This document shows, piece after piece, positions 45,108 through 46,498 of a DNA stretch of 64,000 bases. Both the position numbers and the translations under genes were made by a program. Each line of letters begins with the position of its first letter. Position 1 is the first letter of the stretch. The notes beneath the pieces are model-generated. The model ran no database searches, was not told the origin of the DNA, and saw only the letters and a list, made by a program, of their open reading frames with translations. The DNA comes from Eledone cirrhosa (lineage: Eukaryota), in NCBI GenBank assembly GCA_964016885.1, contig OZ024762.1:5642001-5706000 (forward strand), given 5' to 3'.

Positions 45108-45144
<37 letters not shown>

Positions 45145-45201
45145 TAAACAAATAATGAATAAAACAATGAAACAGTTCCTTATATTAAACAAAAAAAGTT
45201 C

Positions 45202-45349
45202 ATTATTTAACGATCGTTTCTAGGATATATATGTGTTAGAATTGGCATGCATATTCAACAGATCTATGTACAAAATTATACAAAATTATACAAACTATCA
45301 AGATTAAATATACATACCAACACATATATACGCCGTCTTCAGAAATAAT
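45202..45349 (-). ncRNA. Mirror-image hammerhead on the left arm
   Basis: Exact reverse complement of 45348-45495. Confidence 0.72.
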
Positions 45350-45495
45350 TATTTCTGAAGACGGCGTATATATGTGTTGGTATGTATATTTAATCTTGAT
45401 AGTTTGTATAATTTTGTATAATTTTGTACATAGATCTGTTGAATATGCATGCCAATTCTAACACATATATATCCTAGAAACGATCGTTAAATAAT
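45348..45495 (+). ncRNA. Type I hammerhead with stem II domain of about 115 nt
   Basis: ATTATTT-CTGAAGA-cggcgTATATATGTGTTGG...CTAACACATATATAtccta-GAAA-CGATCG-TT|AAATAAT: 7-bp stem I, palindromic stem III. Confidence 0.72.
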
Positions 45496-46498
45496 GAACT
45501 TTTTTTGTTTAATATAAGGAACTGTTTCATTGTTTTATTCATTATTTGTTTAATATTTTATCTTGACTCTGTATACCGTTTATCTTTCACCGAAAGTGAT
45601 TTTTCATTACATCTCTTCTTTCCATGATATCTGGAATACATTGAGTTCTTCATACGGATTGGACACTACCGTAAACTCTTGGTAGATTTATCTACATATA
45701 TATATATATATACGTTATTCCGGGTTGAATCGGAGGTAACTACAGTAAGTAAGGTACTCAATACATTGCAGAGTATAAAAGTTTTAATATAGATGAGATT
45801 CTACAGGACTAGAACTGTTTCATTCTTTAGAAATCATCAGGATATATATATACACACCCACACACACTACCAACACAAAAAACAAAATCACCACAACCAC
45901 CACCATCACCATCACCAATACCAACACCACCGCCACTACCACCACCAATACCACCATCACCTTCACCAATACCAACACCACCACCACTACCAACACCACC
46001 GCCACTACCAATACCACCACCATCACCAAAACCAACACCAATACCACCACCACCACCACTACCTCCATTACCACTATGATCACCACCATCACCAAAACCA
46101 ATACCAATACCACCACCACTACCTCCACCACCACCACCACCACCATCATCACCACCATCACCAAAACCAATACCAATACCACCACCACTACCTCCACCAC
46201 CACCACCATCACCATCACCACCACCACCATCATCACCACCATCACCAAAACCAATACCAATACCACCACCACTACCTCCACCACCACCACCATCACCATC
46301 ACCACCACCACCATCATCACCACCATCACCAAAACCCAAACCAATACCACCATCTTTACCACTACCATTACCACTACGTCTATCAAAGCAAGAATATGAC
46401 ATTGAAATTATGTGTTGATCATGCGCAATGGATGTTAGTAGTAGATATTATAGTAACAGACGATACACAGCCGTCTCTTCCTGCTTACACATACTCAC

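Follow-up and report, generated by a model that had tools for sequence, protein, structure and literature searches.

Lunse et al. reportedly described, in 2017, minimal, dimer-type type I hammerheads of metazoan Penelope-like elements (PLEs). Pairs of hammerheads on opposite strands, 100–700 bp apart, are known in PLEs, and a circle has been proposed for the RNAs that carry them (PMC4209133). Inverted pseudo-LTR (pLTR) pairs are likewise an already known type of PLE insertion: in EN+ PLEs, 5′-truncated pLTRs meet in a palindromic head-to-head junction, with a hammerhead in the pLTR, a tail at one end and a microsatellite as the target (PMC3846280, PMC8557442). These inverted arms have been read as products of self-priming, with the proposal of an antisense RNA (PMC3846280). 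The diagnostic set of the Hydra clade comprises DKT, RW[K/R], a CxCx5C linker, the absence of GxKF/Y and a (TA)n target (PMC8557442). In vitro, the protein of the anole PLE Poseidon cuts and extends both strands, using two internal start sites and an uncut RNA as the template (PMC11167929). In L1 and SVA, an untemplated G at the copied 5′ end has been read as copying of the cap (PMC4859970).

The window, by which we mean the whole 64-kb stretch of Eledone cirrhosa DNA that was analysed, contains an exact, spacerless palindrome with 213 nt in each arm (213 + 213 nt; Table 1). The original prediction of a perfect 426-bp palindrome without a spacer, centred at 45348/45349, was thus reproduced exactly; the runner-up among exact palindromes outside (AT)n in the 64 kb has arms of only 29 nt. 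The predicted extent, 45136–45561, is correct for the palindrome, but not for the insertion, which continues through a 137-nt tail to about 45698 before (AT)n resumes. The whole insertion (45136–45698) contains no ORF in this copy. Since its two arms lie on opposite strands, the pair is not a tandem dimer. The junction can be read in two ways, either as a pair of −7 ends (seven nucleotides before the hammerhead core) that share the 2 nt AT, or as a pair of −6 ends. Compared over 351 nt with the 5′ pLTR of L037, an element that is nearly complete, the right arm and its tail show a single difference. Arm identity had been taken to imply either recent origin or gene conversion; this difference of 1 in 351 nt speaks for recent origin, and gene conversion is not needed. 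It is practically certain that the palindrome is a PLE pLTR pair. Judged by its sequence, the window insertion is a young, protein-less head-to-head pLTR pair in a (TA)n tract, and there was no sign of a host function for this single locus.

Table 1. Features of the insertion, in window coordinates.
Feature	Position	Strand	Remarks
(TA)n target, left side	45111..45138	.	sequence; ~3 nt overlap with the end of the short arm
Inverted pLTR copy, 'short' end type	45136..45349	-	ends at arm nt 213
Hammerhead motif, minus copy	45202..45349	-	mirror of the plus copy; predicted cut after 45209
Head-to-head junction	45348..45349	.	putative capped transcript start; no extra G here
Type I hammerhead motif, plus copy	45348..45495	+	predicted cut after 45488
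Plus hammerhead, stem I	45348-45354 with 45489-45495		
Plus hammerhead, CUGAAGA	45355-45361		
Plus hammerhead, stem II	45362-45476		
Plus hammerhead, GAAA	45477-45480		
Plus hammerhead, stem III			with palindromic AACGAUCGUU
Direct pLTR copy up to first fixed end	45348..45561	+	ends at arm nt 213
One-sided 137-nt tail up to second fixed end	45562..45698	+	start of next unit; leads to ORF in full elements
(AT)n target, right side	45696..45712	.	sequence

Several other structures were observed in the same window. A second head-to-head hammerhead pair, from another family with a short stem II, lies at 55160–55446 (centre 55303, with filler; 117 of 119 positions complementary), and the (TA)n tract of the palindrome is also where a decayed copy of that family (44953–45110) ends. 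To the right of the insertion, the minus strand has a minimal hammerhead-like motif (45805–45840) of yet another family, so that several such elements are piled into one TA tract. A third head-to-head pair, at 13316–13432, belongs to a minimal hammerhead family (CUGAAGA at 13322 on the minus and 13410 on the plus strand). Tandem units of 93–94 nt, each with CUGAUGA, occupy 49100–49460 on the minus strand, and an inverted structure at 44235–44480 includes an exact palindrome with 29-nt arms (44354–44412), in which no hammerhead core was seen.

Copies elsewhere in the genome were located by sequence patterns, and motif pairs 4–12 kb apart were fetched. A 22-nt motif spanning the cleavage site had 9,792 matches in the 3.0-Gb genome, compared to 0 for the reversed control. 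The arm proved to be the pLTR of a unit of ~7.1 kb (about 6–7.1 kb in the family), with 350 nt of the pLTR ahead of the ORF leader and 213 nt of it closing the unit. Counted from Met, the ORF encodes 813 aa in the full copy L038 and 810 aa in L045. It contains FDI, YRDD and a C-terminal VY..YIG; judged by motifs and by visual comparison with published alignments, these correspond to a reverse transcriptase (RT) with a C-terminal GIY-YIG endonuclease. RWR is found at position 37, DKT at 115 and the CxCx5C linker (CNCRNKANC) at 673, and the CxxC and CxH motifs expected near the C-terminus in the Hydra clade are present as CRLC at 771 and CNH at 799. GxK[FY], CCHH and a CxxC between VY and YIG are all absent from the ORF, and Pfam and PDB searches with it recognised nothing. 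Nearly all of the examined ends run into (AT)n, as do both ends in the window. The pLTRs also occur in partial tandem and inverted arrangement, including arrays of up to three ORF-leading pLTRs, 6–7 kb apart (e.g., C1:126843744–126857482).

On the strength of these motifs and of the target, we assign the element to the Hydra clade of EN+ PLEs. The DKT, RW[K/R] and CxCx5C motifs, the lack of GxKF/Y, the lack of CxxC between the GIY and YIG parts, and the (TA)n target are all shared with Hydra-1_Obim and its clade, and compared by eye the Hydra proteins are visibly alike to ours along the RT (PMC8557442). The described Hydra elements are, in the accessible text, mostly shorter than 3 kb (PMC8557442), whereas the units found here reach ~6–7.1 kb with a 3′ region of ~4 kb of simple repeats; in the family of the window copy (family A), these repeats travel with the element. 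A non-LTR retrozyme, consisting of head-to-tail arrays of short ribozyme units, was rejected, since the repeat unit is 6–7 kb long and protein-coding. We also observed a sister family (family B; L185, L205 and L207–L209), which has the same 5′ motif and junction hot spot, a GUA triplet and a short 3′ region, and whose protein is 56–75% identical to that of family A in short stretches. In the window itself, a fragment at 34131–34523 on the minus strand shares 42% identity with the endonuclease part of the element ORF.

Each arm carries a type I core (CUGANGA, GAAA and NUH) with stems I and III. The anatomy of the original prediction, twin type I motifs with CUGAAGA, GAAA, a GUU triplet and a palindromic stem III, was found in its predicted place: CTGAAGA begins at 45355, GAAA follows at 45477 with 115 nt between them, and cleavage after the GUU triplet is predicted to occur after 45488. 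The proposed 7-bp stem I is right for the window copy, where it is this short because the arm begins there, but wrong as a native length, which is 10 bp (to −10) in family A and 12 bp (to −12) in family B. Predicted duplex energies were −12.4 kcal/mol for isolated stem III, and −1.1 (7 bp) vs. −6.6 kcal/mol (10 bp) for stem I. A long and imperfectly closed stem II was also confirmed, but its pairing extends beyond the two 14-nt strands that had been named. In folding predictions, stem II forms a single long hairpin (z = −6.1), and none of 200 shuffled sequences was as stable. The G10.1–C11.1 pair that closes stem II next to G12, called highly conserved in the accessible text of PMC4209133, is absent from families A and B, both of which have C opposite A. 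Beyond this C·A closure there are G–Y and G–C pairs, and then a C·C mismatch at the fourth position, which is kept in both families and is present in short-stem relatives too.

Family B has the same core with a ~105-nt stem II of different sequence; in one of its copies, most of this stem is missing. Covariation, which had been suggested as a check, was partly borne out: in 30 sequences, 6 of the 9 basal stem II pairs change on both sides, and 93% are paired vs. 36–53% in slid controls, but these changes represent essentially one split between the two families, and the pair-count measure was reached by 144/500 shuffles. In the same 30 sequences, stems I and III were paired in 98% and 100% of cells, respectively, but are nearly invariant and therefore uninformative on structure. 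Energy folding of the 7-bp form did not yield the hammerhead fold, the CUGAAGA region pairing with CUAGAAA instead. Co-folding of two copies gave no stem III dimer; the copies pair through stem II, and folding thus lends no support to a dimer. Rfam gave 0 hammerhead matches at gathering score across the 64 kb, and there was no hammerhead among the 51 weak matches within 43500–46000.

Compared to the minimal type I hammerheads of metazoan PLEs, the motif has the common topology, the full core, a palindromic stem III and an extra nucleotide after A9, but it differs in a ~10-fold longer stem II, the C·A in place of G10.1–C11.1, the conserved C·C and a native stem I of 10–12 bp (PMC4209133). In Hydra-1_Obim, stem II has 7 bp and an 8-nt loop, compared to 115 nt here (PMC8557442). 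Lacking the G10.1–C11.1 pair, the family A/B motif could function at most as a hammerhead variant; activity in some setting appears reasonably likely.

The head-to-head junctions are not evenly spread. There were 863 with 0–30 nt between the cores, compared to 67 with 31–60 nt. The original prediction had noted neither this genome-wide hot spot at the centre nor that the arms are a PLE pLTR pair with a tail on one side. By eye, no arm extends beyond −10 among 50 listed junctions of the former set, as against 13 among 50 listed of the latter, in which the remaining listed junctions have fillers copied from nearby sequence. When 104 copies were picked by the 3′ motif, 48 had their start 0–8 nt ahead of the core, including 20 at −7, 3 began at 11–40, 12 began inside and 41 ran on; none began at −9 or −10. 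Genome-wide, a non-native base precedes −6 in 340 arms, −7 in 1,730, −8 in 134 and −9 in 290. (These 5′-motif counts pool the two sister families, which share the motif; about half of the 290 are the native form of family B, and the −7 peak is partly inflated, because a −6 end followed by A scores as −7.) Contigs of independent runs also start here, and the window junction itself recurs in a contig from another study. The native context of the A at −7, TC-A-TT, is one that we take to be initiator-like. A splice acceptor at −7 was ruled out, as there is no native AG. In family A, to which this count applies, there was no hot spot at the cleavage site, with ~5 of 49 nearby junctions on the site itself. 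We consider it very likely that −7 is the 5′ end of the RNA.

Arms that start at −7 are preceded by a G at −8 in 428 of 1,730 cases, where the native base is C. At neighbouring positions, G was found in 5/100 and 6/100 of the listed arms (Fisher p = 4e-7 and 3e-6 vs. 428/1,730). The G samples are the first places of C1–C3 and not random across the genome. Among 53 G cases viewed in context, the G belonged to the partner's CAG in 7, was ambiguous in 12 (the partner could end at −8 or −9), was palindromic without a native source in 18 and had no partner core nearby in 16, so that it was neither core nor stem I base of the partner in 34/53. About 4 of the 16 partner-less cases appeared by eye to be templated by another part of the element, and several lie beside pure (TA)n. 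Because some of the G cases are partner-templated, ambiguous or templated elsewhere, the clean excess is nearer 14–20% than 25%. Scored per palindrome (n = 49), the G was on the tailed arm only in 5, on the short arm only in 7, on both in 3, ambiguous in 11 and on neither in 23. We think it probable that transcripts start, capped, at the A at −7, and that the G would be a copy of the m7G cap.

At their other side, copies end at arm nt 213 or nt 350, i.e., at two fixed ends. One tailed and one short arm were found in 51 of the 54 palindromes with two whole arms; in the other 3, both arms were scored as short. By analogy, the two fixed ends match the two internal start sites shown in vitro for the anole PLE. 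A small hairpin (45681–45695, 5-bp stem and 4-nt loop) lies just before the end of the tail, with a similar one in family B, and may mark the second priming site.

The arms of one insertion differ on average by 1.2 positions, compared to 11.5 between insertions. They are identical in 28/54 palindromes and carry mutations between them in 26/54, and the two arms share a subfamily marker in 48 of the 49 pairs that could be scored, which indicates that a single RNA or a single source locus gave rise to both; the near-identity is also compatible with fold-back or later conversion. Of 8 simple long inversions, 5 have a short arm that extends beyond the tailed one on the 5′ side. (This count excludes L033, L034, L036 and L040, in which one arm enters another unit, and L046/L047, which are interrupted by another element.) The occurrence of G on either arm and the longer short arms fit two end-joined cDNAs better than one folded strand, and we regard it as highly likely that the arms are two independently primed cDNAs.

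The published self-priming interpretation (PMC3846280) holds that one cDNA, or an antisense RNA, turns back at the truncation point and copies itself. It accords with the near-identity of the arms, including the 28 identical pairs, and with fillers that are snap-back copies of nearby sequence, but it does not explain how the short arm can be the longer one in 5/8 long inversions while only the other arm has the tail, nor the 7 clear cases with G on the short arm alone, nor the asymmetric junctions with fillers; we consider it quite improbable. A separate question is whether the −7 end, if real, reflects a cap at all, or rather an RT stall at stem I or a nuclease-trimmed RNA followed by addition of an untemplated C. 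The hot spot does coincide with the 5′ strand of stem I, and in Drosophila Penelope one end of an intron falls on the helix I 5′ end (PMC4209133). However, a structural stop would be expected at −10 in family A or −12 in family B, and 0 of the 48 ends lie at −9/−10; −7 is not preceded by an AG acceptor, the ORF-leading copies continue past this point in 230 cases, and the G excess is confined to one position. An end of this kind is unlikely, and a capped start is the reading that we retain.

The perfect symmetry without a spacer is also what chimeric fold-back reads would give, and an assembly or amplification artefact had been raised with the original prediction. With 863 junctions carrying varied fillers, arm mutations in 26/54, a one-sided tail in 51/54 and the identical junction in contigs from another study's independent run, this can hardly be maintained. 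Nor do we find much to recommend a selected host element, either a regulatory twin ribozyme or a hairpin/miRNA gene whose symmetry is maintained by gene conversion. A 211-bp duplex is predicted for a transcript that reads through both arms, and there are weak miRNA-model matches, but the best of these to be considered as a microRNA precursor were rejected for scores far below the gathering thresholds (mir-3149, 55.9 vs. 100 bits; mir-1277, 53.6 vs. 81 bits), as for any AU-rich hairpin, and the locus is one of hundreds and differs by only 1 in 351 nt from a transposon end. This explanation is very improbable.

The best overall explanation, to which we assign a probability of about 0.7, is two-ended priming on one uncut RNA, with both cDNAs probably ending where this RNA is capped. 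After a DNA cut in (TA)n, each of the two DNA ends would prime reverse transcription on the same uncut RNA. Both cDNAs would run off at the capped end, with the A at −7 as the Pol II start, and end joining through microhomology or templated insertions would then connect their 3′ ends. The hammerhead, situated at the capped end with only 7 A–U pairs in stem I and no partner, would mostly stay uncut. No indel was found at the cleavage site in 130 of 133 arms that contain it; together with the few junctions on the cut site, this makes an uncut RNA the likely template.

The ORF-leading pLTRs present a different picture: 230 have the native base at −8, and only 2 start at −7, one of these with the G. 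If the source has one ORF, its linear capped RNA would be expected to end at −7, and the long copies thus need a template of more than unit length. These long, ORF-bearing copies would most simply come from circles made by paired hammerhead cleavage, a template that the genomic pattern favours slightly; read-through from upstream promoters is the alternative.

Inversions of L1 are not known to duplicate sequence, and, unlike them, both cDNAs here would copy the same stretch to the same end. Two primings per RNA would be shared with L1 twin priming, as is an extra G at the copied 5′ end, here probably cap-derived (PMC4859970). With the anole PLE in vitro, the family would share two start sites that define a tail, extension of both strands and an uncut RNA template, as read here from genomic sequence; the accessible text on the anole PLE does not deal with inverted junctions, caps or circles (PMC11167929). 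Relative to the EN+ PLE inverted pLTRs, which have tails of 30–40 nt instead of 137 nt, the sharp hot spot with its extra G is a further difference, not found in the accessible literature that we searched on them (PMC3846280, PMC8557442). More broadly, the literature searched, subscription papers and bioRxiv supplements being outside our reach, contained no report that inversions of PLEs have a hot spot at the start site or a G copied from the cap. Within that scope, three features are new: the long stem II with its covariation, the junction hot spot with the extra G, and the contrast of 230:2 among ORF-leading pLTRs.

With its 115-nt stem II, the motif is a candidate hammerhead variant missed by Rfam, and such motifs are likely undercounted. 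The origin of inverted pLTRs in PLEs and the purpose of their hammerheads are stated as open questions in the accessible text of previous work (PMC3846280, PMC8557442, PMC11167929). Tentatively, and with somewhat less than even confidence, the palindromes may be a fossil readout of the Penelope cycle, in which double priming occurs near the capped 5′ end and linear RNA gives only dead-end palindromes that reach no further than the cap, while the hammerhead, by pairing two copies, would uncap and circularise the full-length RNA, so that the same priming sites would copy the whole element. For these questions, the family offers hundreds of young, countable events, which speak for a single RNA start base, two primings per insertion and a separate template for the long copies.
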